This document shows positions 2,175 to 62,490 of a DNA stretch of 64,000 nucleotides, piece after piece; position 1 is the stretch's first letter; each line of letters begins with the position of its first letter. A program made the position numbers and the translations under genes. The notes beneath the pieces are model-generated. The model saw only the letters and a program-made list of their open reading frames with translations, searched no databases and had not been told where the DNA came from. Where the stretch lies: assembly GCA_000708525.1 (NCBI GenBank), contig JMRP01000009.1:2588-66587 (forward strand), in the 5' to 3' direction. This DNA is from Cyanobium sp. CACIAM 14 (GTDB taxonomy: Bacteria > Cyanobacteriota > Cyanobacteriia > PCC-6307 > Cyanobiaceae).

Positions 2175-2312
2175 AACGAGGAATCGATTAAGGGTTCGTA
2201 AACACGCCGCCGGGCACCCGGCCATGGCCCGTACGCCGCCCTGTCCGCGCCCCCGATGCGTTTCCACCCGCCCCTGGCTGCGGTTGAATGCGCCCGAACG
2301 CGGTGAACCCCC

Positions 2313-4620: not shown

Positions 4621-4684
4621 CGGCCGAGGGGCCGCGGGTCTTCGGCCTGGAGGGCAACGAGCGGCGAGAGGATCTTGAGCGCTC

Positions 4685-4703
4685 CTTAATCGCTCCATAA
4701 CGT
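4685..4703 (+). promoter_or_regulatory. Candidate Pho box (two 8-bp repeats on an 11-bp period) upstream of pstS
   Basis: CTTAATCG-ctc-CATAACGT compared with the cyanobacterial Pho-box unit PyTTAAPyPy(T/A). The second unit is weak. Confidence 0.3.
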
Positions 4704-4753
4704 TGGGGCCGCCCTGCGGTTGCTAACAAGGCATCGCCCCCTTCTGCTTCTCG

Positions 4754-40259: not shown

Positions 40260-41507
40260 TCAGTCGTCGCTGCGCTCCATGATCAGGGCCTCGTAGGCGT
40301 GGCAGAAGGCGTCCCCCAGGGAGGCTCTCAGGGGCGCGTCATGCCGGAAGGCCTCCAGCGCATCGGCCTGGGAGGTGGGCAGCGGCAGGGCACCCGCCGG
40401 GGCCTCGAGGTACGTGTTCACATCGCTGCGGGCCCCGGGGTCGAGCTCGCGCTCGATGCCGTCGAGGCCCGCCGCCAGCACGGCGGCCTGGAGCAGATAG
40501 GGATTGGCGGCCCCGTCCCCAAGACGCAGCTCGATCCGCTGGTCGTCGGGGATGCGCACCATGTGGGTGCGGTTGTTGCCGCCGTAGCTGATCCAGGACG
40601 GCGACCAGGTGGCCCCTGAGCAGGTGACCGACCGGGCCAGCCGCCGGTAGCTGCCCGCCACCGGATTGGTGAGGGCGCACAGGGCCGGGGCGTGCTGCAG
40701 GAGACCGGCCACGAAGCGGTAGGCCAGATCCGAGAGCCCTTTCTCGCCATCGGGGTCATGGAAAACGTTGTGACCCGCCTCGTCCCAGAGGGAGGCGTGC
40801 AGGTGCGCCCCGTTGCCCGTGAGTTCCGGGATCGGCTTGGGATGGAAGCTGACCCGTACCCCATGCCGTTCTGCAAGGGCGGCGGCCATGACGCGGAAGA
40901 AGGCGTGCCTGTCGGCGGTCAGCAGCGATTCGGCATAGGTCCAGTTGAGCTCGAACTGGCCGTTGGCGTCCTCGTGGTCGGCTTGGTAAGGCCCCCAGCC
41001 GAGGCTTTCCATGGCTTCCAGCAGCTCGCTGATCAGCGGATAGTGCCGCATCAGGGCCAGCTGGTCGTAGCAGGGCTTCGCCTGCCGGTCGAGGCCGTCC
41101 GCGATGGCGTTCCGTTCCGGGTCCATCAGGAAGAACTCCGCCTCCACGCCGCTTCGGAACTGCAGGCCCATGGCCGAGGCCCGGGCGATCTGGCGCTGCA
41201 GCACCCGTCGGGGAGACTGCTCCAGCAGTTCCCCCTCCACCTGCAGATCGGTGGCCACCCAGGCCACCTGGGGCTGCCAGGGAAGCAGCATCAGGCTGCT
41301 GGGATCGGGGATCGCCAGTACGTCCGGATCCGCCGGCGTCATGTCCAGCCAGGCGGCGAAGCCGGCGAAACCCGCGCCGGACCTGGCCAGCTCGGCGGCA
41401 GCGGCGGCGGGCACGAGCTTGGCCCGCTGCACCCCGAACAGATCGCAGAAGGAGAACAGGAAGTGACGGATGCCATGGGTGGCGGCGAAGCGGGCCAGGT
41501 CGGTCAT
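40260..41507 (-). CDS. Glutamine synthetase family protein (GS-I-like catalytic domain, substrate unknown)
   Basis: GVEAEFFL, HEDANGQFELN, GNGAHLHASL, SYRRL and NNRTHMVRIP. Confidence 0.8.
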   Translation of the reverse strand: MTDLARFAATHGIRHFLFSFCDLFGVQRAKLVPAAAAAELARSGAGFAGFAAWLDMTPADPDVLAIPDPSSLMLLPWQPQVAWVATDLQVEGELLEQSPRRVLQRQIARASAMGLQFRSGVEAEFFLMDPERNAIADGLDRQAKPCYDQLALMRHYPLISELLEAMESLGWGPYQADHEDANGQFELNWTYAESLLTADRHAFFRVMAAALAERHGVRVSFHPKPIPELTGNGAHLHASLWDEAGHNVFHDPDGEKGLSDLAYRFVAGLLQHAPALCALTNPVAGSYRRLARSVTCSGATWSPSWISYGGNNRTHMVRIPDDQRIELRLGDGAANPYLLQAAVLAAGLDGIERELDPGARSDVNTYLEAPAGALPLPTSQADALEAFRHDAPLRASLGDAFCHAYEALIMERSDD

Positions 41508-41546
41508 TCGGGGAAGCCGGAGGGTGGGGCTGAAGGGCCGGGAGGT

Positions 41547-42578
41547 TCAGACGGCGCAGAGCCGATCGACGGCCTGACGCAGCTGGAGCTGCTCCGCCGG
41601 GGCCTCGCGGGGATTGCCGGCCCTGTGGCCTAGGTCGGACTCGAGCACTTCGAAGCGGGCTCCGGGGATCAGTGCGGCTTCGGCCGCGCAGTCCTCGGGG
41701 GTGAAATAGAGGTCATGACGCCCCGCGATCACGACGGTGCGGGCCTCGATCCTGCCAAGGGCCTCCGCCAGATCGGCCTCGTCATTCCCCGTGGCGATCC
41801 CGGCGGCAGCAGCCACGTCGTTCGCCAGCCAGACGTCGAGCATGGCCAGCAGGTCGTGGGGGTCGTGGCGCCGGTAGGCCGGAAGCCAGGCCTGCTCCAC
41901 GTAGGCCTCGACGCTGGCGTAGCCAAGCTGGCGGTGGGCGCCGCGGCGATAGAAGGGTTGGCTGGCCGCCCAGCTGGCGTAGATCAGGGCGAAGGTGCGC
42001 AGACCCTGCTCCGGCAGCCCCCGGAAGCGGCGGCCGTCCCAGCGGGGATCGGCGGTGAGGGCCTGGCGAAGGCTGAGCAGGAAGACCCGGTTGTGGGGCG
42101 TGGTGCGGGCGGTGCCGCAGACGCAGCAGATCCGTGGGCTTCGCTGCGGCTCCAGGACGGCCCAGTGGTAGGCCTGCTGGGCTCCCATCGACCAGCCGTA
42201 GATCAGGGCCGGGGACCTCACCCCGAAGACGTCCTCCAGCAGCCGGCACTGGGCGGCCACGTTGTCGCGGTGGTCGACGGGCCAGCGGCCACCCTCCAGG
42301 CCGGGAGCGCCGGTGCTGGGGCTGCTGGAGCGTCCGTTGCCGAACTGGCTGACCAGCACGATGCACCAGCGCCGGGGATCGAGGATCGGTCCCACCACCC
42401 AGTCGATGTCCTCGGGCCAGGCGCCGTAGGAGCTGGGGTAGAGCACCAGATTCGAACGGTCGGAGGCCAGCGCGCCGTAGACCCGGTAGTCCAGGAAGGC
42501 GTCGGGGAGCACGCCACCGCCGGCCAGGGGGAGATCCCCCAGGGCGAAACGGTGGGCGGACGGGAGGACGGTCGGCAA
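41547..42578 (-). CDS. Alpha/beta hydrolase, homoserine-O-acetyltransferase (MetX)-like
   Basis: LVLYPSSYG ... IYGWSMGAQQAY (GxSxG nucleophile elbow) ... VIAGRHDLYF ... DLGH. There is no in-frame ATG near the 5' end, so a TTG at 42578 is proposed. Start is uncertain. Confidence 0.65.
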   Translation of the reverse strand: MPTVLPSAHRFALGDLPLAGGGVLPDAFLDYRVYGALASDRSNLVLYPSSYGAWPEDIDWVVGPILDPRRWCIVLVSQFGNGRSSSPSTGAPGLEGGRWPVDHRDNVAAQCRLLEDVFGVRSPALIYGWSMGAQQAYHWAVLEPQRSPRICCVCGTARTTPHNRVFLLSLRQALTADPRWDGRRFRGLPEQGLRTFALIYASWAASQPFYRRGAHRQLGYASVEAYVEQAWLPAYRRHDPHDLLAMLDVWLANDVAAAAGIATGNDEADLAEALGRIEARTVVIAGRHDLYFTPEDCAAEAALIPGARFEVLESDLGHRAGNPREAPAEQLQLRQAVDRLCAV

Positions 42579-42601
42579 GGGAAGGTGCGCCTGCGGTGGG
42601 G

Positions 42602-43570
42602 TCAGGGCAGGGCGAGGCGGGCAGGGTCGGCCAGGAAACCCCGGTGCACCGCCAGATAGCCGCGGTCGCAGTGCTCCATGCGGGGGGCCAGATGGGTGTG
42701 GGCTTCGGCGAGGGCGTGGAATGGCAGCGAAGGGTAGAGGTGGTGCTCGACGTGGAAGGGCATCTGCCACATCAACCGGCGCAGGGGCGGGAGCGTGAGG
42801 GTGGTGCGGGTGTTGCGCAGTCCATCGCAGCCGGTGCTGCAGCCGCCGTGTTCGGCCAGCAGCACGAACCGCAGCAGGGGCTGGCCGACGGCGAGGGGAA
42901 GCAGCCAGAACCAGAGGAGGGCACCGTTGGCGTGCCAGAGCGAGGCCAGCAGCAGCACGCCGTAGACCGCGAACTGCAGACGGATGGAGCGGGTGACGGT
43001 CTCCTCCGCCTCGGCGGGGATGTAGGGCCTGGCGCCGAAGTCGCCCCGCAGGCCGGCGAGGTGGCTGCGGATCTTGCCCAGCCACCACGGCAGGCCGCTG
43101 AGTTCGAGCAGGTACGCGCCGAGGCTGCTGGGAGGGGCTTCCTCGAGTTCAGGGTCGAGGCCGGGCTGGTGGGTGTAGCGGTGATGCCACTGGTGGTAGC
43201 GACGGTAGAAGTCGGCGTTGTAGAAGCTCAGCACCCCCGCCCACCAGGCCACCGCGTCGTTGAGCCCCTTGCTGGCGAAGGCGGTGCGGTGGCCGCACTC
43301 GTGCATGGCGCAGAAGCCGAAGGCCAGGCCCCAGCCGAGCAGCAGCACCCCCGTCAGCCTCAGCGCGACCGGGACCGGTGCCGGCAGGACGGCCAGCGGG
43401 GCACCCCACAGCAGCGCGCCCGTCACCAGGACAGTGACGTGGAAGGCCAGCTGACGCCATCCCGGACCGTCGCGACGGTCGTTGAGCCGACGAAGCAGCT
43501 CTCCCGAGAGCAGGGGGGCGGCGGTCTCGGGGTCGTGGACCGCTGGAGCGGAAGAAGGTGAGGCAGTCAC
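42602..43570 (-). CDS. Membrane fatty-acid-desaturase-family di-iron protein
   Basis: His boxes HECGH, HQWHHRYTH and HVEHH, with hydrophobic segments. A GTG at 43570 is proposed because the upstream part of the track ORF is Pro/Arg-rich. Confidence 0.7.
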   Translation of the reverse strand: MTASPSSAPAVHDPETAAPLLSGELLRRLNDRRDGPGWRQLAFHVTVLVTGALLWGAPLAVLPAPVPVALRLTGVLLLGWGLAFGFCAMHECGHRTAFASKGLNDAVAWWAGVLSFYNADFYRRYHQWHHRYTHQPGLDPELEEAPPSSLGAYLLELSGLPWWLGKIRSHLAGLRGDFGARPYIPAEAEETVTRSIRLQFAVYGVLLLASLWHANGALLWFWLLPLAVGQPLLRFVLLAEHGGCSTGCDGLRNTRTTLTLPPLRRLMWQMPFHVEHHLYPSLPFHALAEAHTHLAPRMEHCDRGYLAVHRGFLADPARLALP

Positions 43571-43842
43571 GGGGAGGCCAGGGGCAGACGGGGCCGGAGG
43601 CGGCGAGAACAGTGGAGGGAGCGGCGGGGCTGGGGAGGTGCAGGCCCACCAGAGGGGCTGGACGCCTCCGATACCCAGGAAGGTGCCTGGGCAAGGGGGT
43701 CTTGCGGGTGCTCTGGCAGGCTCAGCGGCTGGCCCGGTGGGTCGCCCAGGGTTTCGCCCACTGTCCCGCCTGCGGTCGCCCTCCGACCGTCCGCCGTGAA
43801 CCATAGGCCGATCAGGATGGCCCCTGCGCCGGGAGGGTTGGC

Positions 43843-44797: not shown

Positions 44798-45010
44798 ATG
44801 CCCTCCAGCTCAGCAGGCCAGGCCAGCGACGCCGTCTTACCCACGGCCGGCTCCTCCCACCACCCGCACGACCCCCGGCGCCAGGCCCTGATCGCCTCCC
44901 TCCGGGTCCGCTACAGCGTTGCCGAGCAACGACGGGATGCGGAGGCCAAGCGGGCCCTGTTCAAGGAGGCCGCCTACCTGGGGATCCGCCCGGACGCCTA
45001 CCAGGGCTGA
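44798..45010 (+). CDS. Hypothetical small protein (70 aa)
   Basis: In-frame ATG within track ORF 44468-45010. The C-terminal half (LIASLRVRYSVAEQRRDAEAKRALFKEAAYLGIRPDAY) looks protein-like. Confidence 0.3.
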   Translation: MPSSSAGQASDAVLPTAGSSHHPHDPRRQALIASLRVRYSVAEQRRDAEAKRALFKEAAYLGIRPDAYQG

Positions 45011-46065
45011 ACCAGGCGTCGGTAGATCGCCTGCTGGTGGAGGATGCGTGCCTCCAGCCGGTGAGGGGGACCCGTTCGGAACCCATCCCCGTAGCCGCGC
45101 TGGGCCGACTCGACCAGGGCCCGGTCCTCGGCCAGGAACTGGGCCATTTCCGCCATCAGGGCCGCGCCTTCGGCCTGCCGTTCCCCGGGCCCGAGCAGCC
45201 ACACCTGCATGCGGCAGCGGTCGAGGCATTCCGGCAGGAACTGGATCATGGCCAGGCGCCCGTCGGGCCACAGCAGCAGGTGGTTCCAGGGAGGCAGTCC
45301 GTAGGTGAGGAACTCGCCCTCAGCGCCGATCCGCGCCGCCGTAGCGGGAGCATTCGCCGCGGCCGGCTCCGCCCAGGGGGTGGAGAGCACGTTGGCCCAG
45401 GTGCCGAAGCGATGGCGGTAGTGGCGCACGGGGCCCTGCAGCCGGTGCAGGGTGGTGGGGTGGGCGATGGCGACGTGGTAGTCGTCGAGGGTGTTGTCAT
45501 GGGCGATCTTCCAGTTGCAGGCGAGGGTCTGCTCGTGGAAGGCCAGCGGAACCAGAGACATCTCCAGGGCGGGGCCCGCTTCCCGCAGCGGCAGGTCGAG
45601 CTGCTCCTCCAGAGGGATCGGGTCGCTCCCCGGGGCCACCCAGATCAACGAGCCCAGCACCCGGCAGCCGAGACGCTCCAGCGGCCACTCGCGGCGATCG
45701 AAAGGCGCGACGAACTCCGCCTCCCGTGCCGCCGCCAGCAGCTGGCCCCGGAGGTCGTAGGTCCAGCCGTGATAGGGACACACCAGCCGCCGGCAGCTCA
45801 CGCTCCCCTCCCCCGGCTCGCGGAAGGCCACGGCCCGGTGGGGGCAGCGGTTGCGGAAGGCCTGCATCACCCCATCGCTTCCATGGCAGAGCAGCACGGG
45901 TGCGCCCAGGATCTCCACCGCCCGCACGTGATGGCGGGGCAGTTCGGCTTCGGCGGCGACGGGATGCCAGAAGCGTGGGGCGTAACGCTCGCGCTCGATG
46001 GCGGCGATGGTCTCGGAGCGATAGACCTCCGCTGGCAGAAAGGACGGAGAAGAGGCGGCGTCCAT
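44998..46065 (-). CDS. Rieske [2Fe-2S] / non-heme-iron oxygenase alpha subunit
   Basis: CPHRAVAF ... CPYHGWTY Rieske motif, and NWKIAHDNTLDDYHVAIAHP in the catalytic domain. The start is 46065 (MDAASS) or 46092. Confidence 0.85.
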   Translation of the reverse strand: MDAASSPSFLPAEVYRSETIAAIERERYAPRFWHPVAAEAELPRHHVRAVEILGAPVLLCHGSDGVMQAFRNRCPHRAVAFREPGEGSVSCRRLVCPYHGWTYDLRGQLLAAAREAEFVAPFDRREWPLERLGCRVLGSLIWVAPGSDPIPLEEQLDLPLREAGPALEMSLVPLAFHEQTLACNWKIAHDNTLDDYHVAIAHPTTLHRLQGPVRHYRHRFGTWANVLSTPWAEPAAANAPATAARIGAEGEFLTYGLPPWNHLLLWPDGRLAMIQFLPECLDRCRMQVWLLGPGERQAEGAALMAEMAQFLAEDRALVESAQRGYGDGFRTGPPHRLEARILHQQAIYRRLVQPW

Positions 46066-46075
46066 GGAATGGTGC

Positions 46076-46843
46076 TCAGAGCAGGGCACCATCCAGGCCC
46101 CGCAGGCAACTGGCCAGCTCCTCGCGCAGCTCCAGGAAGGGCTGGGACACCCTCAAGTGGCGCAGGTCGGAGCGGTCCAGCGACACCGCCACCGACTGGA
46201 CGATCCTCCCGGGCCGGGGCGCCATGATGTGGACGGTGCCGGCGAGCAGCAGCGCCTCCTCGATGTCGTGAGTGATCAGCAGCACCGTGAAACCGGTGCG
46301 CCGCCAGAGGTCGTGCAGGAATTCCTGCATGGATTCCCTGATCTGAAGATCGAGGGCACCGAAGGGCTCATCCAGGAGCAGCACCTTCGGTTCGGTGGCC
46401 AGAGCCCGGGCGATCGCCACGCGCTGCTGCATGCCGCCGGAAAGTTCTCTCGGCAGCAGTCGCCCCGCATCGGCCAGTCCGACCACGTCGAGGAAATAGG
46501 CGGTCCGCTCGCGGATCTCCGCCTTGGAGCGTCCCTGGAGCGACATGCCGAAGGCGACGTTCTGCGCGGCCGTGAGCCAGGGATAGAGGCTGTACTTCTG
46601 GAAGACCATGCCCCGGTCGGAACCGGGCCCGCGCACCGGCTGGCCGTCGAGGCGGATCGAGCCTTCGCTGGGTCGGTCGAGGCCGGCGATCAGGCGCATC
46701 ACGGTGGATTTACCCGAACCCGAACTCCCCACAAGGGCCATGAACTGACCCGACACCAGTTCGAAGCTGACGCCATCGAGAACCAGCTTGCGATCCCGAC
46801 CTTCGCCGAAACTCTTGGAGACGTTGGAAACCTGGAGATGCAT
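46076..46843 (-). CDS. ABC transporter ATP-binding protein (NitT/TauT family type)
   Basis: GSSGSGKST (Walker A), LSGGMQQRVAIARAL, LLLDEPFGALD. Confidence 0.9.
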   Translation of the reverse strand: MHLQVSNVSKSFGEGRDRKLVLDGVSFELVSGQFMALVGSSGSGKSTVMRLIAGLDRPSEGSIRLDGQPVRGPGSDRGMVFQKYSLYPWLTAAQNVAFGMSLQGRSKAEIRERTAYFLDVVGLADAGRLLPRELSGGMQQRVAIARALATEPKVLLLDEPFGALDLQIRESMQEFLHDLWRRTGFTVLLITHDIEEALLLAGTVHIMAPRPGRIVQSVAVSLDRSDLRHLRVSQPFLELREELASCLRGLDGALL

Positions 46844-46847
46844 GGCG

Positions 46848-47624
46848 TCAATTGGCCCAGGAGCAGGCACGCCGCATCAGGAATCGGAAGCCCAGGTCGA
46901 TCATCAGGCCGATCAGACCGATCACGATCAGCCCCACGAAGATCTCGTCGGTACGTAGGAAACGCTGGGCCAGGCTGATGCGCTTGCCGAGACCTTCGGT
47001 GGCCGCCACGAGTTCGGCGACGATCACCAGATTCCATGCCGACGCCATGTTGATGCGGTAGGTGTCCAGCACCTGAGGGGCGATGTAGGGAGCCACGACC
47101 CTGGTGAGGATCGGCAGGCCCCTGCCACCGAGAGTGAGGGCCGTCTCCACCAGCTCGTGTGGCACGAACTTCACCGCATCCATGATCATCAAGGCGTTGA
47201 AGAAGAAGGTGCCGATGAAGATGAGCATCACCTTTGGAAGTTCCTCCAGCCCGAAATAGATGATCAGCAGGGGAATGAAGGCCGGCGCCGGCATGTAGCG
47301 GATGAGCGCCATCAGAGGCTCCAGCAATCGGCAGATCACCTTGTTGGTGCCCATGGCGATGCCTATCGGCAGGGCCAGACCCGCCGAGATCACGAAGCCC
47401 AGAAACACCCTGCGGATGCTGGCGATGGCATCCCCCACCAGGATCCCGCGCTGGAATTGACTGGCGCCCGCGTCCCACACCGCTCCGGGACTGGGAAGGA
47501 ACAGCTTGTCGACGCTGCCGCTGGCGGTGGTGAGCAACCACACCAGGAACACCGTGAGGATGCCGAGCACCCCCAGAAACCAGGGGTGGGCGAGGAGACG
47601 CCGCAGCGCCGGGTTGGAGGCCAT
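46848..47624 (-). CDS. ABC transporter permease (NitT/TauT family type)
   Basis: Six hydrophobic segments and an EAA-like loop (TLGGRGLPILTRVVAPYIAPQV). Confidence 0.85.
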   Translation of the reverse strand: MASNPALRRLLAHPWFLGVLGILTVFLVWLLTTASGSVDKLFLPSPGAVWDAGASQFQRGILVGDAIASIRRVFLGFVISAGLALPIGIAMGTNKVICRLLEPLMALIRYMPAPAFIPLLIIYFGLEELPKVMLIFIGTFFFNALMIMDAVKFVPHELVETALTLGGRGLPILTRVVAPYIAPQVLDTYRINMASAWNLVIVAELVAATEGLGKRISLAQRFLRTDEIFVGLIVIGLIGLMIDLGFRFLMRRACSWAN

Positions 47625-47629
47625 GGCGA

Positions 47630-48637
47630 TCAGCGGGCGTTGTCGACGAACTGGGAGTTGAACAGCTTCGTCAGGTCGGGTTTGCTCTTGGCGAGGCCCG
47701 TCTCCACCAGAAAGGCACTGATCTCCCCGGCGGCATAGGGAAGGGAGAGCATCGTGGTGCCCGGCTGGAAGTTCCTGCGGTTCTCCTCGAGGGTCTGGAT
47801 GGTGGTGCCGGCGTTGTACGCCTTGAACTCGGCCTCGCTGACGCCGGAGCGCGCCACCAGGATCGGCAGGGTGCCTGCGGGATCGTCCTTGATGGTCTTC
47901 AGCGTGGCGAACCAGGCATTGACGATCTTCTGGATCCTCTCGGGATTCTTGGCGACGAAGTCGGTCCGGCAGACGAGCAGATCACTGATCGCTCCAGGGT
48001 GATCCTTCGATGTGGACAGCGCCCGGCTCCCGGGGCGCTTCAGGGCCTGGGTGGTGAAGGGGGCATAGACCCCCGCCGCATCCACCTTGCCAGCGGCGAA
48101 GGCGGCGGCGGCCGCACCGGTCTCGAGGGGGACGAAGCTGATGTCCTTGGCCGAGAGACCGGCCTCGTGGAGCACCTTCAGCAGCAGGAAGTGATCGACC
48201 GTTCCTTCCTCCGCCGCCACCTTCTTGCCCTTCAGGCCAGGGATCGACTTGATTTCCGCGGCGGCGATGATCTGATCATTGCCCGTCGAGTAGTCGTTCT
48301 GGAGCACCACCTGCAGATCCGCCCCTCCGGCAATGGAGCTGATGGTGTCGTTGAGCGTCTGGCTGTTGCAATCGAGCTGGCCGGCGTTGAGGGCGTTGAT
48401 CGAATCGGTGTAGCCGTCGAACCACTGCATGGTGGCGGCCACGCCCTCTGCCTTGAACAGACCCTTCTCCTCGGTGACCTTCCAGGGGAACCAGCCCGGC
48501 CAGGCGCTGTAGCCGATCTTCACGGGCACCTCGACCTTCGAGGTGCCCTGGCAGCCGGCCAGCAGGCCGCCGCCGAGACTGAGGATCAGGGCCAGCAAGA
48601 GGACCCTGCGTCGAGGCGAGTGGTTGACGTGGAGCAT
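47630..48637 (-). CDS. ABC transporter periplasmic substrate-binding protein (NMT1/THI5-like, NitT/TauT type)
   Basis: Lipoprotein-type signal (LLAGCQG), then IGYSAWPGWFPW ... GKVDAAGVYAPF. Confidence 0.8.
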   Translation of the reverse strand: MLHVNHSPRRRVLLLALILSLGGGLLAGCQGTSKVEVPVKIGYSAWPGWFPWKVTEEKGLFKAEGVAATMQWFDGYTDSINALNAGQLDCNSQTLNDTISSIAGGADLQVVLQNDYSTGNDQIIAAAEIKSIPGLKGKKVAAEEGTVDHFLLLKVLHEAGLSAKDISFVPLETGAAAAAFAAGKVDAAGVYAPFTTQALKRPGSRALSTSKDHPGAISDLLVCRTDFVAKNPERIQKIVNAWFATLKTIKDDPAGTLPILVARSGVSEAEFKAYNAGTTIQTLEENRRNFQPGTTMLSLPYAAGEISAFLVETGLAKSKPDLTKLFNSQFVDNAR

Positions 48638-48714
48638 GGTGGTGGCCAGGTGAAACGAGGGGGCGGAGGATGGGATCAGATCGGGAATTGGTCGGCGGCT
48701 GCCGGTGGATTCAG

Positions 48715-48810
48715 GCTTCGGGCGATGGCGTAGGGGATGGCGTTGCAGATGGAGGCGCAGATTGCGTCGGGGATCTGGTCTGAGATCTGGTGAGCGATGG
48801 CGACGGAGAT
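48715..48810. repeat. Eight phase-locked degenerate 12-nt tandem units, each ending GAT on the plus strand (ATC-N9 on the minus strand)
   Basis: Units are gcttcgggcGAT, ggcgtagggGAT, ggcgttgcaGAT, ggaggcgcaGAT, tgcgtcgggGAT, ctggtctgaGAT, ctggtgagcGAT and ggcgacggaGAT. The array lies directly downstream of the GS-like stop (48815-48817). Confidence 0.8.
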
Positions 48811-48814
48811 CTCA

Positions 48815-50179
48815 TCAGAAGAATTCCAGATAACGCTGTTGCTCCCATTCGGAAACGGTCGAATGGTATGCCTCCCACTCCTCTCGTTTGTAGGTGACGA
48901 AAGCATTGAACATGGCATCACCGAATACGCTTTTTGCAAGTGGATCGTCGGCGAAGGCCTGGATCGCCTCCCCGAGGGTCCGTGGCAGCATCCGCAGGCC
49001 ACGTTCGGCCCGTTGCTCGGGGCTGAGCGTGTAGGCATTCACCAGATTGGGTGCCCCTGGATCCAGTTCCTCCCGGATGCCCTCGAGCCCGGCCGCCAGC
49101 ATCAGTGCACCTCCCAGATAGGGATTGCAGGAAATGTCCGCGGCCCTGCATTCCACCCTTCCGCCCGGTGAGGGAATCCGCAGCATGTTGGTGCGATTGT
49201 TGTTGCCGTAGCACACGAACACCGGTGCCCAGGTGAATCCCGACATGCTCCCCTGAGCCACCAGCCGCTTGTAGCTGTTGACCGTCGGGGCGATCACGGC
49301 GCAGATGGCGGGTGCATGTCGGAGCACGCCGGCGATGAACTGTTCGGCCAACCGTGTGACCTTCCCGGGAGTGGCCTCCGGGGTGGCGAAGAGGTTGGCG
49401 CCCGTCCGGTCGTCCGCCAGGGACATGTTGAAGTGGGCGCCACTGCCGGTGCGATCCCCGAAGGGCTTGGGCATGAAGGTGGCCAGCAACCCATGGCGGT
49501 GGGCGATCTCCTTGGCCATCAGCTTGAAGAAGGTCAGCCGGTCCGCCATGGCGAGCACCTCGGCGTAGTCGAAGTCGGTCTCGAACTGGCCGGGTCCGTC
49601 CTCGTGGTCGAAGGAATACACCCCCCACCCCAGGGCGTTCATCGCCTCCACCAGTTCCCCGAGCCAGGGGAGGTTGTCGAGCAGCCCGCGCACGTCGTAG
49701 GCCGGCTTGTCGAGGGTGTCGCGGTCGCTGAAGGGAACCCAGCGGCCGGTGGCCGCCTTTCTGAGCACGAAGAACTCGGTCTCGACACCGAGGTTGAAAC
49801 GGAAGCCCATCGCCGCCGCCTCCGCACGCACCCGCTGCAGGATGTTGCGGCTGCAGGCCTCGAAGGGTTGGCCGTGCAGGTGCAGATCACTGGCGAACCA
49901 GGCCACCTCGCTCTGCCAGGGCAGCACCGTGACACTGGCGGGATCGGGGACGGCGGCCACCTCGTCGTCGCTCACCTCCTGGGGCACCCCGTCGAGGGCG
50001 GCCCCCGTGAACAGTTCGGAGCCGCCCATCATCTGGCCGAGGTGGGCCAGCGGAACCGCCTTGGCCTTGCTCACGCCGTGGAGGTCGACGAAGCTCGCCA
50101 GGGCGTAGCGGACGCCCTTGGCCCGCAGGTCGGCCTGCAGGCTGGTGACGGCATCGGAGGCCGGATGCTGGTGGACCAT
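48815..50179 (-). CDS. Glutamine synthetase family protein (GS-I-like, gamma-glutamyl ligase type, substrate unknown)
   Basis: GVETEFFV, HEDGPGQFETD, GSGAHFNMSL, SYKRL and NNRTNMLRIP. Its ATG shares nucleotide 50179 with the hypB-like stop (TGATG). Confidence 0.85.
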   Translation of the reverse strand: MVHQHPASDAVTSLQADLRAKGVRYALASFVDLHGVSKAKAVPLAHLGQMMGGSELFTGAALDGVPQEVSDDEVAAVPDPASVTVLPWQSEVAWFASDLHLHGQPFEACSRNILQRVRAEAAAMGFRFNLGVETEFFVLRKAATGRWVPFSDRDTLDKPAYDVRGLLDNLPWLGELVEAMNALGWGVYSFDHEDGPGQFETDFDYAEVLAMADRLTFFKLMAKEIAHRHGLLATFMPKPFGDRTGSGAHFNMSLADDRTGANLFATPEATPGKVTRLAEQFIAGVLRHAPAICAVIAPTVNSYKRLVAQGSMSGFTWAPVFVCYGNNNRTNMLRIPSPGGRVECRAADISCNPYLGGALMLAAGLEGIREELDPGAPNLVNAYTLSPEQRAERGLRMLPRTLGEAIQAFADDPLAKSVFGDAMFNAFVTYKREEWEAYHSTVSEWEQQRYLEFF

Positions 50180-50880
50180 CAGGCGGACACCAGGGTGGGG
50201 GTGGACCGAACCGCGCTGAGCTGATCGACGAGCCAGCCGTGCCAGGCCTCGAAGCCCTCACCGCTGCTGGCGGAGAGGCGAAAGACGGCGGTGCGGGGGT
50301 TGACCTGGCGGATGTGATCCTCGATCCGCTCCACGTCCACCGGCAGGTGCGGCAGCAGATCCACCTTGGTGATCAGCACGCAGTCCGCCTCCCGGAACAT
50401 CACCGGGTACTTGAGGGGCTTGTCGTCGCCCTCGGTGACGCTCAGCAGCGCCACCTTGCGGTGTTCGCCGACGGCGAACTCCGCCGGGCAGACCAGATTG
50501 CCCACGTTCTCCACCCAGAGCACGTCCAGCTCGGCCGGATCCAGTTGCTGCCGGAGCAGTTTCAGGCCGCCGCTCACCATGGCGGCATCGAGGTGGCAGG
50601 CCCGGCCGGTGGTGATCGGCACCACGGGAATCCCGAGGGCCTCCAGACGCCTGGCATCGAGCTGGGTGGTCATGTCGCCTTCCAGCACGGCCATCGACCA
50701 GCGGCTGGAGAGGGCGGCGAGGCTGCGTTCCAGCAGGGAGGTCTTGCCGGCGCCGGGGCTGCTCATCACGTTGAGGCAGAGCAGGTTCCAGGCATCGAAG
50801 TGGGCGCGGTTGTGCTCGGCCCGGTGCTGGTTGGCCGCCAGCAGGTTGAGGCCGAGGTTGTCTTCGAGGGGCATGTGCAT
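50179..50880 (-). CDS. hypB: HypB-type nickel-insertion GTPase (GhaB-like by context)
   Basis: [11 protein letters not shown] (P-loop), [15 protein letters not shown]. Confidence 0.85.
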
Positions 50881-50886
50881 GGCAGG

Positions 50887-51261
50887 TCAGCCGACGGGGA
50901 TGGGGGAGGGGCAGGAATAGGCGACGGAGCGGATCCGCAGCTCCCGGCCGCTGACGATCTCCTCCATCGGGTGCCGGCAGCAGGGGGAGCGATAGCCGGA
51001 CTCGGGATCGGGGCTGTAGGTGGCCTGGCAGCGAAGGCAGCGACCGATCAGCTGGACCGGCTCGATCACGAGCTCGGCTCCTTCGAGCCAGCTGCCCCGC
51101 ACGGCGTCCGCCCAGGTGAGCACCAGCTGATCGGGCTCGACGCAGGTGAAGGTGCCCACCTGGAGATGGACCCGATCCACCCTGGGCACCCGGGGGGCAT
51201 GCTGCTGCTTCCACTCGTTCATGGAGAGCAGCAGGCAGCGGGTCATGTCGACTTCGTGCAT
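50887..51261 (-). CDS. hypA: HypA-type nickel metallochaperone (GhaA-like by context)
   Basis: MHE N-terminus (Ni site), CLRC ... PCC zinc-site region, size 124 aa. Confidence 0.8.
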   Translation of the reverse strand: MHEVDMTRCLLLSMNEWKQQHAPRVPRVDRVHLQVGTFTCVEPDQLVLTWADAVRGSWLEGAELVIEPVQLIGRCLRCQATYSPDPESGYRSPCCRHPMEEIVSGRELRIRSVAYSCPSPIPVG

Positions 51262-51265
51262 GCCC

Positions 51266-52480
51266 CTATCTCCAGGCCCGGTCGACCTGCAGGTTGCAGG
51301 TGGGGGAGATCCAGCCGGGCATGGCCTGGCGGGGCAGCTGACCGCTGACCACCAGATGGGCCAGGGTGTCGCAGATGACCCGGGTGGCCATGAGGGACGT
51401 CATGTCGCTGATGTCGTAGGGGGGGGACACCTCCACCACCTCGAGGCCGCAGACCGGCACGTTGCGCACGATCAGTTCCAGCAGCTTGAGGGCTTCGCGG
51501 GGCAGCAGGCCGCCCGGTTCGGGCCAGCCGGTGCCGGGCACGAAGCCGGCGTCGATGCAGTCGATGTCGAAGGAGATGTAGACGCAGTCGGTGCCGTCGG
51601 TGGCCCGCTCGATGGCGAACCGCGCCGCCGCCTCCAGGCCCATGTCGCAGATGTCGGTGACCGTGAGGACATTGGTGCCCCGTTCGCGGCAGACCTTCAC
51701 CCCTTCCCGCGGCACCTGCCAGCCGCCGATGCCCAGCTGCACCAGGTTCTCGGCCGGGGCGTTCGCCATGTTGGTGGCGTGGAACCACGGCGTGGTGTGC
51801 ATGCGCTCGTCGAGGTCGGTCTCCTGGGTGTCGACGTGGCGGTCGAAATGGATGATGCCCACCTTCCGCTCGCCCAGGTGCCGGCAGACGCCCCGCACCG
51901 TGGGAAAGCCGATCGAGTGGTCGCCGCCCAGGATCACCGGGAAGGCGCCGCTGGCGAAGACGTGGGCGATCCCCTTGGAGATCTGATCGAAGCTCTTCTC
52001 GTTGTTGGCGGGGATGGTGAAGATGTCACCCACGTCGCAGAGGCGGATCTGCTCGCGCAGGTCGACCCCCATCTCGTAGTTGTAGGGGGTGTAGAGGGCC
52101 GAGATCCGCCGGATCCCCTGGGGACCGAAGCGGGTGCCGGGGCGGTAGGTGGTGCCGCTGTCGTGGGGGACTCCCACCACGGCCACGTCGAACTCACCGA
52201 CGCGGTTCACGTCCTCCAGGTAGGGCGCCTTCATGAAGGTGTTGATGCCCGCGAAATGGGGCAGCTCCCCGCGGGAGAAGGTGGAGATGCGGCGATCGAC
52301 GATGCTCTCGGCGGCTTCCAGGCCCCAGCGGTGGGCCTGCTCCACCTCCTGCTGCCAGCCGGTGAGGGGCAGGGACGCCTCCCTGGCCAGAGCCCGGGCT
52401 CCTTCGCCACCGGGTGGAGCCGGACCACGATCGAAGGCCGCGGCCGCGTCGGCCGGACTGCCGCTGGACGGTTCGTTCAC
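51266..52480 (-). CDS. Ureohydrolase (arginase/agmatinase fold), probable Ni-dependent guanidine hydrolase GdmH type
   Basis: ILGGDHSI, HFDRHVD, SFDIDCID and EVVEVSP metal-site motifs. It is followed by hypA/hypB-like genes and preceded by a guanidine-I riboswitch. GTG start at 52480 follows AAGAGG. Confidence 0.75.
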   Translation of the reverse strand: MNEPSSGSPADAAAAFDRGPAPPGGEGARALAREASLPLTGWQQEVEQAHRWGLEAAESIVDRRISTFSRGELPHFAGINTFMKAPYLEDVNRVGEFDVAVVGVPHDSGTTYRPGTRFGPQGIRRISALYTPYNYEMGVDLREQIRLCDVGDIFTIPANNEKSFDQISKGIAHVFASGAFPVILGGDHSIGFPTVRGVCRHLGERKVGIIHFDRHVDTQETDLDERMHTTPWFHATNMANAPAENLVQLGIGGWQVPREGVKVCRERGTNVLTVTDICDMGLEAAARFAIERATDGTDCVYISFDIDCIDAGFVPGTGWPEPGGLLPREALKLLELIVRNVPVCGLEVVEVSPPYDISDMTSLMATRVICDTLAHLVVSGQLPRQAMPGWISPTCNLQVDRAWR

Positions 52481-52511
52481 TCAGACCTCTTGGCACGGTG
52501 GGAAAGGGCGG

Positions 52512-52639
52512 TCTCCCGGGCTTTTGTCCCTCCGTGCCACTCACAGGGGGCCGGAAGACCGCTCCCTGGGAGTGCGCTTCTCTCGGACCAGACATCGGGC
52601 AGATCAGGCGAAGCCTGACCTGCCGGACCGGAACCCTAG
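52512..52639 (-). promoter_or_regulatory. Guanidine-I riboswitch (ykkC class) aptamer
   Basis: The minus strand reads CUAGGGUUCCGG ... CUGGUCCGAGAG ... CACGGAGGGACAAAAGCCCGGGAGA. These are the three invariant blocks of the ykkC consensus in the correct order, about 30 nt upstream of the start codon. Confidence 0.8.
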
Positions 52640-52687
52640 AAGCAACTGTCCGCCCGCTCATCTTCACCGGCCCTCCCGGCGCAGGTT

Positions 52688-52701
52688 GTGACGGTTGCTA
52701 C
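52688..52701 (-). promoter_or_regulatory. Candidate NtcA-type site upstream of the riboswitch
   Basis: The minus strand reads GTAGCAACCGTCAC (GTA-N8-CAC), followed after 22 nt by GAAGAT (-10-like). This is about 25 nt upstream of the aptamer. Confidence 0.3.
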
Positions 52702-59322: not shown

Positions 59323-62300
59323 TCAGACGGCCACGCTCTGGTAGCCGCCCAGGGAACGGCAGACCACCCGGTTGCGACCATTGCGCTTGGCCTCGTAAAG
59401 GCAGTCATCAGCGAGTTGCTGCAGGGTGTCGAAATCGCAGACGGCATGCGAATTGGGGTCCCAGATGGCGATGCCGATGCTGACGGTGAGGCAATTTCCC
59501 TTCAGCGGATCGGGATGGTAAATAGCTTTCTTTTCGATTGATTCGCGGAGACTTTCGCAAAGCTCGAGGGCTGATGCAGTATCTGTGTCGGGAAGAATAA
59601 TCGCAAACTCTTCACCGCCAAGACGAGCGAGGAAATCATTCTTGCGATGGATGCTGGCATTCAGAAGAAGCGCAACCTCCTTGAGACAGTGATCACCATA
59701 GCCGTGCCCCATTACATCGTTGATCATTTTGAATTGGTCGATGTCGATCATCACCAGGGCCAGGAAAGAAGACGTCAGCTTGGAGGAGGCAATGTTGGAT
59801 TTCAGGAAGGAGTCGAAGCTGCGTCGATTCGCCAGCATTGTAAGCGGATCGAGCAGGGCAAGCCGCTTGGAGCGTTCACTCTCAAAAGCATAGAAAAGCA
59901 GGCTCAACAAACTGCTCATGGCTTCAATCCGTTGAATCTGCTCATCACTGAATGTGGTGCCGCCATGGAGAGCAATGGTGAGCACCGGAATCGAGATTCC
60001 ACGTGATTCAAGCCTGATTCCAAGGTAATCGCTGCAGCCTTCAGCCTTCAAACCTTCCAGAAAATTAAAGCCAACTCCCTTTGTCGACGAGGGCTTATGG
60101 CGGAAGATTCGGGTGGCGGTAGCGATGTAATGCAAGGGGCTGCTCAGATGCTCGTGTTTCTGAAGAAAGTCCCTTTCAAATCGCAGTGTTGTCACCTTGC
60201 CAGGGCTTGACCCTTGCCAAACATACTGGCTGCAGTCAATATCATCTTGGTCAGGTAGGAAGGCAAGCGAGAATCTCAGGATATCCAAGCCCCAGCGCTT
60301 GAGTTCGTTGACAAAGAGAAGTACGAATTCCTCAAAACTCCGCAATCTTGACCAGTTGTCCAGAATGTAACGTTCAAGCGGTACATTGAGCTCAGTGCAA
60401 TCACCATCTTCGTTGCTGCGGAGATCAAGAAGACGTGCTGAGGAATGGATCTTGGCGAGCTGTTTTTGCAGTGCCACAGGGGAGGCCCATGTGGATGTAT
60501 CGAGAAATGTGATCACCTCTTCCAACGCCAGAGGTCTGGAAATGAAGTGTCCTTGCAGAGCGTCGGCTCCGAGACGCACGGCGGCGGTCATCTCGTTGTA
60601 AGTTTCTATACCTTCACAGACCACGGTCTTGCCAAGGGCGTGAACAGTGCTGATGAAGGAGCCGATGTATCGCTGCAGGCGAAAGGACAGATGGATTCCC
60701 TTGACGAGGTTGATATCAAGCTTGATGGCGTCATACCAGGCCTCGCAGATTCGTCTGTAGTTCGACAGACCCGAACCAAAGTCGTCAATAAGGACCCTGA
60801 AGTTCAGTTCCTTAATGAGTCTTTCCGACGCCGTCGTGACGTTGATGGAGCCAACGGGAATGTCGGTCGCGGCCGTTTCGGTGATCTCAATGCAGAACGT
60901 TGAGCTGTCGACACGATGTTTCTTCAGGTTCCTGATTAGCTGATTGAGCCTGTCTTCGCTGCTAGCGGAGTCACTGCTGATATTGACTGATATGTAGTCG
61001 ATTCGCTCTCTGAGAATCTCGGATTTGCGTAGTGCTTGATGGACCTCTTCCAGCCGGCTGATCACCAGGGCGTCGATACGATGGGCGATGCCGAGATCAT
61101 GGGCCAGCTCCAGAACCTTGCCGGTGCCGAGATTATGGAGGGCGTGAGGTCGAAAACGGATTAATAGTTCCAGTCCGAACTGTCCAGGATTGTGTACCAG
61201 TAGGATGGGCTGAAATCGAAGATCAAGATCTTCTGCTCTCAACTGGGTCAGTTGTGCTTTTACAAGACTTCTTTCCAGGAGCAAGGTATCATCTCCCTCC
61301 TCCATCAGTCGGCAGGAAAGGCGATCTTCCGACGCCAGCATCTCTCCGACCGCCTGCAGGGACAACAAGGACGAGGGAGATGCTCCCGGCACGAAACGTT
61401 GACCGGTGATCACTACATCACCCCAGTCGATAGCCATCTCCCTGGACTGCTGCAGTGATTCGCTGACAAGTGCAAGGAGGTCGGCAAGTATCGACTCGCA
61501 ATCATCCTTGGTATGAAGCAGATTGTCATTGGTGGCAGGGATGATCAAGGCGCATTTGGTTTCCCCTGTGCGGTAAAAGTCCAGGTACGAATATGACGGA
61601 GCCATCTGTTGGATATGCTTGCACGTACCGGAAATGATCATGGCGATCTCGTTCTCGTTCAAGAAGGCCCGCTGACGCTCAAGAAAGCGAAAGAAAATCG
61701 TCACCAGCATCGCCTTGCGGTGCTGATCAGGCGAGTCGTGCTGTGCAGCTAGTTCAAGGTCGTTGGCTAATGCAAAGCGTGACAACAGGAGAGTCTGCTC
61801 ATCAGTCCGTAAGGAACTCATGAGCCTCCTCTCTTTCCTTCGAAAGTGCCTGCTGACGGCCAAGTTGATGGCAGTGAACAGCACGCCGAAGCTGACCAGG
61901 GCGATGGCCAGATCTCTTTCTATGGGTTCTGCCAGAGGACCCTGGGAGGAGAGATCCCAGGCGAGTTGCTGATCTCTGGCGCTGATCTGCTGAAGGCGGC
62001 CAGATGCAACCGGTCCCATCCTGTTGGAACTCGAGAGAACCGCATTGTTGCTGTCGCGATGATGGTTCCCATCGGGAAGAGGTTGACGCGCGGAGAGCTT
62101 CATTCCAGCTTGAGCGGGCTCCCGGCCGTTCTTCACCCAAGTGAGCAGGAGAGAGGAAGCGCTCCCTCTGGACGGCATCAGGGGGCGGATGCTTGGGTGG
62201 TTGCTCTGGCAATCCAGTTGGATGGCATCCACCTCAGACGAGGAAAGCACTTCTGCGGTGCTCGTCCTCACCATGGTCTCAGCCCTTGAGACCGGGAGGG

Positions 62301-62490
62301 GCCGAGCGTTGGACGGGAACTCGGTGGCCTGCGTTGGGGCACACGTCAGATCTGCCAGGCGGTCAGCGGTCTCGCTGATGATGCTGGCATTGCGCTTGTG
62401 GCCCACAGACATGAAAACCAGCAGAGAGCCAATGGAGAGAATCGATCCACCGAAAATGAGGCTTCTCAGACGACGGCCCATCGTCAGCAT
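59323..62490 (-). CDS. Membrane-anchored multidomain c-di-GMP signalling protein: periplasmic region, degenerate GGDEF-like region, EAL, GAF-like region, GGDEF
   Basis: EAL-domain residues ELLIRF, VNISS, EITE, IDDFGSG, IKLD and EGIET. C-terminal RKND (I-site RxxD) followed by GGEEF. Two TM segments flank a ~190-aa N-terminal region. The gene is markedly AT-richer than its flanks. Confidence 0.88.
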   Translation of the reverse strand: MLTMGRRLRSLIFGGSILSIGSLLVFMSVGHKRNASIISETADRLADLTCAPTQATEFPSNARPLPVSRAETMVRTSTAEVLSSSEVDAIQLDCQSNHPSIRPLMPSRGSASSLLLTWVKNGREPAQAGMKLSARQPLPDGNHHRDSNNAVLSSSNRMGPVASGRLQQISARDQQLAWDLSSQGPLAEPIERDLAIALVSFGVLFTAINLAVSRHFRRKERRLMSSLRTDEQTLLLSRFALANDLELAAQHDSPDQHRKAMLVTIFFRFLERQRAFLNENEIAMIISGTCKHIQQMAPSYSYLDFYRTGETKCALIIPATNDNLLHTKDDCESILADLLALVSESLQQSREMAIDWGDVVITGQRFVPGASPSSLLSLQAVGEMLASEDRLSCRLMEEGDDTLLLERSLVKAQLTQLRAEDLDLRFQPILLVHNPGQFGLELLIRFRPHALHNLGTGKVLELAHDLGIAHRIDALVISRLEEVHQALRKSEILRERIDYISVNISSDSASSEDRLNQLIRNLKKHRVDSSTFCIEITETAATDIPVGSINVTTASERLIKELNFRVLIDDFGSGLSNYRRICEAWYDAIKLDINLVKGIHLSFRLQRYIGSFISTVHALGKTVVCEGIETYNEMTAAVRLGADALQGHFISRPLALEEVITFLDTSTWASPVALQKQLAKIHSSARLLDLRSNEDGDCTELNVPLERYILDNWSRLRSFEEFVLLFVNELKRWGLDILRFSLAFLPDQDDIDCSQYVWQGSSPGKVTTLRFERDFLQKHEHLSSPLHYIATATRIFRHKPSSTKGVGFNFLEGLKAEGCSDYLGIRLESRGISIPVLTIALHGGTTFSDEQIQRIEAMSSLLSLLFYAFESERSKRLALLDPLTMLANRRSFDSFLKSNIASSKLTSSFLALVMIDIDQFKMINDVMGHGYGDHCLKEVALLLNASIHRKNDFLARLGGEEFAIILPDTDTASALELCESLRESIEKKAIYHPDPLKGNCLTVSIGIAIWDPNSHAVCDFDTLQQLADDCLYEAKRNGRNRVVCRSLGGYQSVAV

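Follow-up and report, generated by a model that had tools for sequence, protein, structure and literature searches.

A guanidine-I riboswitch operon of Cyanobium with a glutamine-synthetase-like ligase of a distinct clade and a Rieske oxygenase

Guanidine has been recognised as a widespread nitrogen source only recently, and to our knowledge two routes of its degradation are known, together with one oxygenase add-on for methylguanidine. The question raised here is what a glutamine synthetase (GS)-like ligase and a Rieske oxygenase do in the guanidine operon of Cyanobium sp. CACIAM 14, which lies in a 64,000-nucleotide stretch of contig JMRP01000009.1 (the window; G+C ~68%). A sequence-only reading of this DNA had described a guanidine hydrolase operon extended by these two genes into a candidate pathway for substituted guanidines or amines. 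Comparison with related loci makes it very likely that both genes are genuine members of the guanidine regulon. The operon is listed below in the order of its minus strand, followed by the next gene downstream.

52511-52650, minus strand: guanidine-I riboswitch aptamer at the operon head (Rfam RF00442)
51266-52480, minus strand: gdmH, Ni-dependent guanidine hydrolase orthologue (Pfam Arginase, 259 bits)
50887-51261, minus strand: hypA-like Ni chaperone gene, ghaA (Pfam HypA, 82 bits)
50179-50880, minus strand: hypB-like Ni GTPase gene, ghaB (TIGR00073, 276 bits)
48815-50179, minus strand: GS-like, putative gamma-glutamyl ligase of a clade with Thr, Ser and Asp in the amine pocket (T/S/D clade; Gln-synt_C, 330 bits; TIGR03105, 563 bits)
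48638-48814, minus strand: 177-nt intergenic gap between the ligase and the importer genes, possibly with an internal promoter
47630-48637, minus strand: NitT/TauT-type substrate-binding protein, GimA-like (Pfam NMT1, 73 bits; TIGR01728, 229 bits)
46848-47624, minus strand: permease of the ATP-binding cassette (ABC) importer, GimB-like (BPD_transp_1, 78 bits)
46076-46870, minus strand: ABC ATPase, GimC-like (ABC_tran, 118 bits; 23-nt overlap with the permease gene)
44998-46065, minus strand: Rieske non-heme-iron oxygenase, alpha subunit only, CntA/Stc2-like (Rieske and Ring_hydroxyl_A domains)
43843/43882-44760, plus strand: xylose-isomerase-like TIM-barrel gene, convergent (AP_endonuc_2, E=2e-6)

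The open reading frame (ORF) coordinates and families given by the sequence-only reading were all borne out by the ORF list and the Pfam and NCBIfam matches, and the riboswitch that it implied is present. The genes of the first half are separated by 4 nt (gdmH-hypA), 6 nt (hypA-hypB) and -1 nt (hypB-ligase); the hypB stop (50181-50179) and the ligase ATG (50179-50177) share one A within TGATG (50181-50177), the overlap that had been read there. After the 177 nt between the ligase and the binding-protein gene, the gaps are 5, -23 and 10 nt up to the Rieske gene. The two spacings that had been allowed for the Rieske gene correspond to two start codons: ATG 46065, at which the public gene call (P0271) also starts, lies 10 nt past the ATPase stop, and the alternative in-frame ATG 46092 gives a 17-nt overlap with the ATPase gene. 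Downstream, the convergent TIM-barrel gene comes next, so that the Rieske gene is the last of the minus-strand unit.

GdmH splits guanidine to urea and ammonia. The window GdmH matches the Synechocystis enzyme Sll1077 (PDB 7esr/7oi1) with 749 bits over residues 16-404, at roughly 85% identity over 389 residues, which upholds the assignment to the GdmH-GhaA-GhaB system made from the sequence. An Sll1077-like arginase fold, adjacent HypA/HypB-like genes and a guanidine-I riboswitch in the 5' leader are all present, and gdmH-hypA-hypB with its riboswitch is by homology a clear orthologue of the published system. Comparison with the sll1077-sll1082 locus of Synechocystis sp. PCC 6803 (Funck et al. 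2022; PMC8390497; PMC12704784) showed that the riboswitch, GdmH, the HypA/HypB-type maturases and the order of the NitT/TauT importer genes are shared. In contrast, the window adds the GS-like gene between hypB and the importer, translationally coupled to hypB, and the Rieske gene after the ATPase gene together with the adjacent TIM-barrel gene, and no canonical NtcA box was seen near its operon. Synechocystis lacks both the GS-like and the Rieske gene, and the paper that describes GimABC mentions neither (PMC12704784). The importer genes of the window were assigned to the GimABC type by their Pfam and NCBIfam matches and by their order next to gdmH; the KD of GimA for guanidine is 97 nM (PMC12704784).

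Linkage and control across genomes

One genome per species was scanned with the GS-like protein, which gave 80 loci mapped by tblastn, and a metagenome survey with an alignment of divergent clade members as the query gave 80 further loci (numbered with the prefix L where they are named). The closest related loci are those of Cyanobium and Synechococcus genomes, of the freshwater picocyanobacterial type, and a DUF3136 gene lies upstream of the operon. In the 59 picocyanobacterial loci, which are phylogenetically so close that raw counts overstate their independence, the full gdmH-hypA-hypB-ligase-ABC-Rieske order is kept: hypB stands directly before the ligase gene with gdmH upstream in 54/54 loci with enough flank, and the Rieske gene directly follows the ATPase gene in 51/51. 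GdmH is 91-95% identical among these loci, and the lowest identities are 70% for the ligase and 53% for the Rieske protein. The Rieske gene diverges faster than the rest, with a median identity of 69% vs. 93% for GdmH. The independent evidence is provided by distinct architectures and lineages.

Twelve loci of filamentous cyanobacteria (Nodosilinea, Leptolyngbya, Phormidium tenue and relatives) have the order ligase-ABC-Rieske, and neither gdmH nor hypAB lies within 10 kb. By Rfam and an nhmmer profile, all 12 have a guanidine-I riboswitch upstream of the ligase gene, at a distance of 93-184 nt, and the Rieske gene follows the ATPase gene in all nine loci with room for it. In 11 of the 12, the 3' strand of the aptamer, AGCCCGGGAGGA, doubles as the 5' arm of an intrinsic terminator, a strong hairpin with a U-run behind it. 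The predicted element is a classical terminator-type ON switch acting directly on the ligase gene. By gene order, ligase, importer and Rieske oxygenase thus appear as a separable module, which stands alone behind the guanidine-I riboswitch in these organisms.

Other architectures were found in the remaining lineages. The ligase gene stands between hypA and hypB in L076 (riboswitch-gdmH-hypA-ligase-hypB-ABC), and a Burkholderiales metagenome-assembled genome (MAG), L078, has the order riboswitch-ABC-ligase-DUF1989-...-urea/guanidine carboxylase. Twelve metagenome loci share the order binding protein-permease-ATPase-[creatininase-family]-ligase-[NikR-like]-cgdA-cgdB-gca-amidase, with a riboswitch detected in several; a riboswitch was sought in 30 more metagenome ligase loci and none was found. 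At least four operon architectures therefore contain a ligase of this clade, which accompanies either of the known guanidine-degrading pathways or stands alone and occurs in two phyla-level groups; in nearly all architectures the binding-protein gene is its neighbour. Of the 80 related genome loci, 69 have a homologous aptamer ahead of the operon. As a control, none of 32 loci with related GS-like genes of the AQN or AAN pocket type has a riboswitch, a GdmH homologue, Gca or DUF1989 among its neighbours.

Oxygenase genes are recurrent neighbours of the clade as well. T/S/D ligases adjoin Rieske genes in L081 (two), L097, L105, L107 and L127 (two), and genes of 2-oxoglutarate (2OG)/Fe(II) oxygenases (DIOX_N/2OG-FeII_Oxy) in L080 and L110; as judged from these families, the pairing of ligase and oxygenase recurs by non-orthologous replacement. 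A lack of linkage in other genomes had been named as what would overturn the sequence-only reading, and this objection decisively fails, since the GS-like and Rieske genes are conserved with guanidine genes elsewhere. Its picture of an extended GdmH operon stands in that both genes are conserved there. However, the extension is not specific to GdmH, as the module stands by itself in filamentous cyanobacteria and the ligase occurs equally in guanidine-carboxylase operons.

The aptamer of the window scores 75 bits, above the gathering score of 63, and covers the Rfam model over its full length (1-107). A U-run terminator is absent from the riboswitch leader of the window. In the minimum-free-energy fold, GGCACGGAGGGA pairs with UCCCACCGUGCC just 5' of the AAGAGG Shine-Dalgarno sequence and the GTG at 52480. 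An Rfam scan (E<=1) detected no further riboswitch or RNA motif in the 177-nt gap or in the rest of 43.5-53.3 kb, and a scan of 41-54 kb for consensus promoters and terminators gave nothing above chance. No perfect NtcA box (GTA-N8-TAC) was found near the operon, and the gaps between ligase and binding-protein gene in 57 related loci contain none even with one mismatch allowed. On the minus strand at 52687-52700, ~40 nt upstream of the aptamer, lies an imperfect NtcA-like box, GTAGCAACCGTCAC (GTA-N8-CAC). A gap of varying length between the ligase and the importer genes is present in every cyanobacterial version. Because the 177-nt gap precedes them and gimABC of Synechocystis is driven by its own promoter (PMC12704784), riboswitch control of the ABC and Rieske genes is putative.

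Active site of the ligase and affinities of the Rieske protein

The best PDB matches of the ligase are glutamate--methylamine ligase (9qur, 386 bits) and RhGmaS (7cql, 329 bits), whereas true GS structures score ~275 bits. The protein is 42-43% identical to GmaS, and both match TIGR03105. The roles of active-site residues were taken from the RhGmaS structure paper (PMC7948447), and their positions were obtained through HMMER alignment. In GS, Asp50' binds and deprotonates ammonium, and the glutamate of the Glu-flap (E327 in E. coli, E304 in B. subtilis) is catalytic (PMC7948447). Thr replaces Asp50' in all 81 orthologues, and Trp, within FTWAP, replaces the Glu-flap glutamate, a substitution shared by GmaS (W300). 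K30', Y147, D177, E179, E186 and R312 are retained. The loss of both ammonium-handling residues is thus common to the ligase and GmaS (7cql, 9qur; PMC7948447), as are the kept catalytic residues. The two differ at three positions of the amine pocket, which is A/Q/N in the two solved GmaS structures and T48/S175/D188 in the window protein (A48' to T, Q175 to S, N188 to D). They also differ in context, a guanidine riboswitch and guanidine catabolism as opposed to methylamine catabolism; genes for N-methylglutamate synthase or dehydrogenase were absent from the Pfam-scanned neighbours in the window and the related loci.

The window protein and its 80 genome orthologues (n=81) all carry the T/S/D signature, which persists in representatives down to 44% identity. 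In the metagenome loci, 55 of 87 GS-like copies carry it and the other 32 are of the GmaS-type AQN or AAN. The T/S/D sequences are monophyletic in a neighbour-joining tree. On these grounds the ligase belongs to a GmaS-related monophyletic clade that is recognisable by a three-residue signature. It is probably not an ordinary GS; the suggestion of the sequence-only reading that the protein is something other than a glutamine synthetase gains support from the loss of both ammonium-handling residues and from the T/S/D pocket. The second GS-like gene of the window (40260-41507) has a true GmaS A/Q/N pocket, so that the organism keeps both types.

CntA/Stc2-type enzymes hydroxylate a carbon beside a cationic nitrogen, after which the C-N bond is broken. 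The Rieske protein of the window carries the motifs CPH...CPYHGW and DDYHVAIAH, for the Rieske cluster and the mononuclear iron, and its best PDB sequence matches are CntA (74 bits), Stc2 and NdmA. Its AlphaFold2 (AF2) model has a predicted local distance difference test (pLDDT) score of 83, and the top Foldseek matches are CntA (template modelling (TM) score 0.77-0.79) and Stc2 (TM 0.76-0.78). Comparison with the alpha-only Rieske monooxygenases CntA, Stc2 and GbcA showed that the fold and the CxH...CxxH and HxxxxH...D motifs are shared and that a beta subunit is lacking in all. However, the identity is only 17-24%, and the window has no adjacent reductase gene of the CntB or GbcB type. The Rieske proteins of the filamentous cyanobacteria are orthologous to that of the window (37% identity, 211 bits), with the common motif CNWK..HDNTLDDYHVAIAH.

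The adjacency of a GS-like and a Rieske gene had suggested an analogy with aniline-dioxygenase systems, and this adjacency is indeed shared with AtdA1-A5, TdnQTA1A2B and NpaA1-A5. Membership in that group does not follow: no genes for a GATase-like hydrolase, an oxygenase beta subunit or a reductase were found between 40 and 54 kb, and the closest relatives of the oxygenase are CntA and Stc2 and not AtdA3. The ligase and the Rieske protein of the window come from other subfamilies than those of the aniline and 1-naphthylamine systems, and they serve nitrogen scavenging under a guanidine riboswitch, as far as their context indicates, rather than aromatic catabolism.

Proposed mechanism and its alternatives

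The reading that we favour, with a probability of roughly 0.45, is a guanidine-induced nitrogen-scavenging locus of two separable parts, with a ligase acting on a guanidine-type nucleophile and a Rieske enzyme dealkylating alkylguanidines. The first part, defined by close homology to characterised proteins, comprises the guanidine-I riboswitch, GdmH and the HypA/HypB maturases. The second, by comparative genomics a conserved unit of the guanidine regulon, comprises the T/S/D ligase, the GimABC-type importer and the CntA-like alpha-only Rieske monooxygenase. The importer would supply guanidine and small guanidine analogues. The Rieske enzyme would hydroxylate the carbon on the guanidino nitrogen of an alkylguanidine such as methylguanidine, and collapse of the hemiaminal would give guanidine and an aldehyde, as in CntA/Stc2-type chemistry and as with the unrelated 2OG dioxygenase MgdH. 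Guanidine would then be hydrolysed by GdmH. With ATP and glutamate, the ligase would attach a gamma-glutamyl group not to ammonia but to a nucleophile of the guanidine type, most likely guanidine itself or a close analogue. Such acylation would activate the inert guanidinium by removing its resonance stabilisation, like carboxylation on the route through guanidine carboxylase (Gca), and the nitrogen could pass on as glutamine if gamma-glutamylguanidine were split by amidinohydrolysis into glutamine and urea. Guanidine or an analogue as the substrate of the ligase is a tentative assignment, and dealkylation of alkylguanidines by the Rieske enzyme is slightly more tentative still.

A direct precedent, in another enzyme family, for an oxygenase that widens the substrate range of a guanidine operon, and for the oxidative dealkylation of a substituted guanidine that the sequence-only reading had considered, is MgdH/MgdL: the 2OG/Fe(II) dioxygenase MgdH, which requires the beta-barrel lyase MgdL, demethylates methylguanidine to guanidine and formaldehyde (PMC12508155). 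In both cases the oxygenase gene belongs to a guanidine-I-riboswitch operon with an ABC importer and a guanidine-degrading pathway, and the Rieske enzyme of the window is a plausible functional analogue that would release guanidine by hydroxylation next to the guanidino nitrogen. The window differs in that its oxygenase is a Rieske alpha subunit accompanied by a GS-like ligase; it contains no 2OG oxygenase, and no MgdL-like gene was recognised. The MgdH paper mentions neither Rieske nor GS-like genes (PMC12508155). Among the open-access papers and preprints searched, none connects a GS-like ligase, a Rieske oxygenase or a creatininase-family partner with guanidine riboswitches or operons.

Several points weigh against the favoured reading. 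The ligase accompanies complete guanidine-degrading pathways of both kinds, beside which a further enzyme acting on guanidine seems superfluous; for Synechocystis, which has no such ligase, GdmH alone suffices for growth on guanidine (PMC12704784). Guanidine markers are missing from some T/S/D loci (L060, L080, four loci of the Halopseudomonas type and numerous short metagenome contigs), other T/S/D ligases adjoin AllG-like, formamidase or creatininase-family genes, and the clade may use a broader or different amine. D188 is presumably the state of Bacillus-type GS, in which case only part of the T/S/D signature may be derived, and gamma-glutamylguanidine appears in none of the open-access papers and preprints searched. 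For the oxygenase, the ligase-neighbouring Rieske genes of different lineages belong to different subfamilies that are 24-30% identical. No reductase gene lies near the Rieske gene of the window, where a cyanobacterial ferredoxin could substitute for a dedicated one. The Rieske gene may also be transcribed from a promoter inside the 177-nt gap and not from the riboswitch.

The main rival of this two-part scavenging locus is a ligase that serves as a dedicated ammonia-assimilating GS isoenzyme, trapping the ammonia burst (up to three per guanidine) and escaping the shutdown of the housekeeping GS, while the Rieske enzyme acts separately. Ammonia and CO2 are the products common to the GdmH and guanidine-carboxylase routes, and the presence of the ligase in these two mechanistically unrelated routes, in the latter with CgdAB, speaks for such a role. 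So do its amidohydrolase-type neighbours (creatininase family, formamidase, AllG-like), its score above the NCBIfam cutoff of TIGR03105, 'type III glutamate--ammonia ligase', and the weak acceptance of ammonium by GmaS (PMC7948447). However, both residues that bind and deprotonate ammonium are replaced (Thr at Asp50', Trp at the Glu-flap Glu; PMC7948447), the closest solved relatives favour methylamine over ammonium, and in the filamentous operon the ligase comes first behind the riboswitch without an ammonia-releasing enzyme. An ammonia trap would also leave the recurrent pairing with oxygenases unexplained, and we consider it unlikely. A second rival, which accommodates that pairing, is a pathway with a gamma-glutamyl carrier, as in the aniline-dioxygenase or isopropylamine systems. 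The ligase would first gamma-glutamylate an imported alkylamine or alkylguanidine, and the Rieske enzyme would then oxidise the adduct, for example by demethylation of gamma-glutamylmethylamide or gamma-glutamyl-methylguanidine, which would release formaldehyde and leave glutamine or gamma-glutamylguanidine. The T/S/D ligase stands beside an oxygenase in at least six independent contexts, into which three Rieske subfamilies and 2OG oxygenases swap, the Rieske protein resembles N-dealkylating enzymes, and the GS-like ligases AtdA1, NpaA1 and IpuC act ahead of oxygenases. Nevertheless, at least 12 guanidine-carboxylase operons hold the ligase without an oxygenase, and the GATase-like hydrolase and the beta subunit are missing. 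A methylamine substrate should moreover keep the A/Q/N pocket, yet it is the separate second GS-like gene of the window that has this signature. For methylguanidine, the guanidine-I riboswitch of V. boliviensis did not bind this compound (PMC12508155). We judge a carrier pathway to be slightly less probable than an ammonia trap.

The two genes could also be unrelated passengers in the guanidine operon of a single lineage, as might be thought from Synechocystis, which does without both (PMC12704784), and from the faster evolution of the Rieske gene noted above. Nevertheless, all picocyanobacterial loci with sufficient flanking sequence keep the gene order, the ligase occurs independently in four architectures and two phyla-level groups with the riboswitch directly upstream in 12 loci, and the control clade is without such linkage. 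The comparative data effectively refute this explanation, which is very improbable. A more far-reaching form of the favoured reading is doubtful, if a little less so than the ammonia trap: the T/S/D enzymes would be glutamate-guanidine ligases that constitute a third, ATP-driven route of guanidine assimilation beside the Ni hydrolase and the carboxylase, with lineage-specific partners that cleave the acylguanidine. The acylguanidine would be cleaved to glutamine and urea or deiminated, by partners that would be the Rieske and TIM-barrel proteins in cyanobacteria and a creatininase-family amidohydrolase in proteobacteria. The riboswitch-gated module would then be the only guanidine pathway in cyanobacteria of the Nodosilinea/Leptolyngbya type.

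Neighbouring genes and wider meaning

The TIM-barrel gene was assigned from its third-codon-position G+C (GC3) phase, the weak AP_endonuc_2 Pfam match and a public gene call of 292 residues (P0391). Its AF2 model (pLDDT 85.5) gave only fold-level Foldseek matches, xylose-isomerase-like, with a TM score of ~0.6 and 12-18% identity, and searches of NCBIfam and of PDB sequences gave no match. The gene is present in 51 picocyanobacterial loci, in 40 convergent after the Rieske gene and in 11 divergent before gdmH, and homologues of 41-45% identity lie beside the ligase loci L081 (14792-15769) and L088 (1116-1964) in unrelated bacteria. In L081 the TIM-barrel gene is translationally coupled to a Rieske gene. 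The ORF that follows the Rieske gene in filamentous loci was considered as a counterpart and rejected, as it has no similarity to the TIM-barrel protein and is conserved in only five loci.

A second minus-strand cluster (40260-43804) adjoins the operon and consists of three genes.

40260-41507, minus strand: GS-like gene with the A/Q/N pocket (TIGR03105, 553 bits)
41547-42599, minus strand: MetX-like alpha/beta hydrolase (PRK07581, 354 bits)
42602-43804, minus strand: membrane protein of the FA_desaturase family (weak match, at 44 bits with a cutoff of 380, to GntB, the guanitoxin arginine hydroxylase)

An FA_desaturase gene lies near the guanidine operon in 36 of the 59 picocyanobacterial loci. 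Farther away, at 60-62 kb, the G+C falls to 0.53 against a background of ~0.68, over the gene of a 1055-residue EAL-GGDEF protein (59323-62490, minus strand), and this region may have been acquired horizontally.

In non-cyanobacterial guanidine operons of six metagenome loci (L082, L087, L088, L090, L093 and L096), a creatininase-family gene (PF02633, ~256 residues) is located directly upstream of the T/S/D ligase gene and coupled to it translationally; further members are present in L081 (5909-6679) and L102 (3801-4544). A gene for a regulator-like protein with RHH and NikR_C domains often follows (L086, L087, L088, L096). Since creatinine is a cyclic acylguanidine, the creatininase-family partner may, speculatively, act on an acylguanidine product. 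AllG-like genes (PF06545, the family of an oxamate carbamoyltransferase subunit) stand beside T/S/D ligases without guanidine markers in L105 (8715-9941), L118 (1710-2939) and L122 (2887-4170), the last with a formamidase-family gene (4180-5127). The 21-kb metagenome contig L081 combines two T/S/D paralogues and two Rieske genes with creatininase, carbamoyltransferase, two FGE-sulfatase-like, TIM-barrel, SDR and polysaccharide deacetylase genes, and may represent an island devoted to the catabolism of a nitrogen-rich compound. In L076, four tandem copies of the nitrogen-stress small RNA NsiR1 (RF02399, 53-55 bits; 2074-2822, minus strand) lie ~5 kb upstream of gdmH-hypA-ligase-hypB. Six MAGs (L016, L018, L022, L038, L043 and L047) carry picocyanobacterial guanidine loci, with proteins 90-92% identical, under unrelated names that include Bordetella parapertussis, Bifidobacterium breve, Pimelobacter simplex, Bradyrhizobium ivorense and Tabrizicola; their taxonomy labels look wrong.

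The distinct monophyletic clade of GS-like ligases recurs in guanidine regulons, in which it had so far gone undescribed: beside GdmH in the abundant freshwater picocyanobacteria, first behind the riboswitch in filamentous cyanobacteria and within guanidine-carboxylase operons in other bacteria. This distribution points to an undescribed step in guanidine metabolism, for which the three-residue signature provides a directly testable candidate. The signature also offers a correction of the widespread annotations 'glutamine synthetase' and 'aromatic ring-hydroxylating dioxygenase', and the locus may enlarge the set of guanidino compounds from which phytoplankton can take nitrogen.

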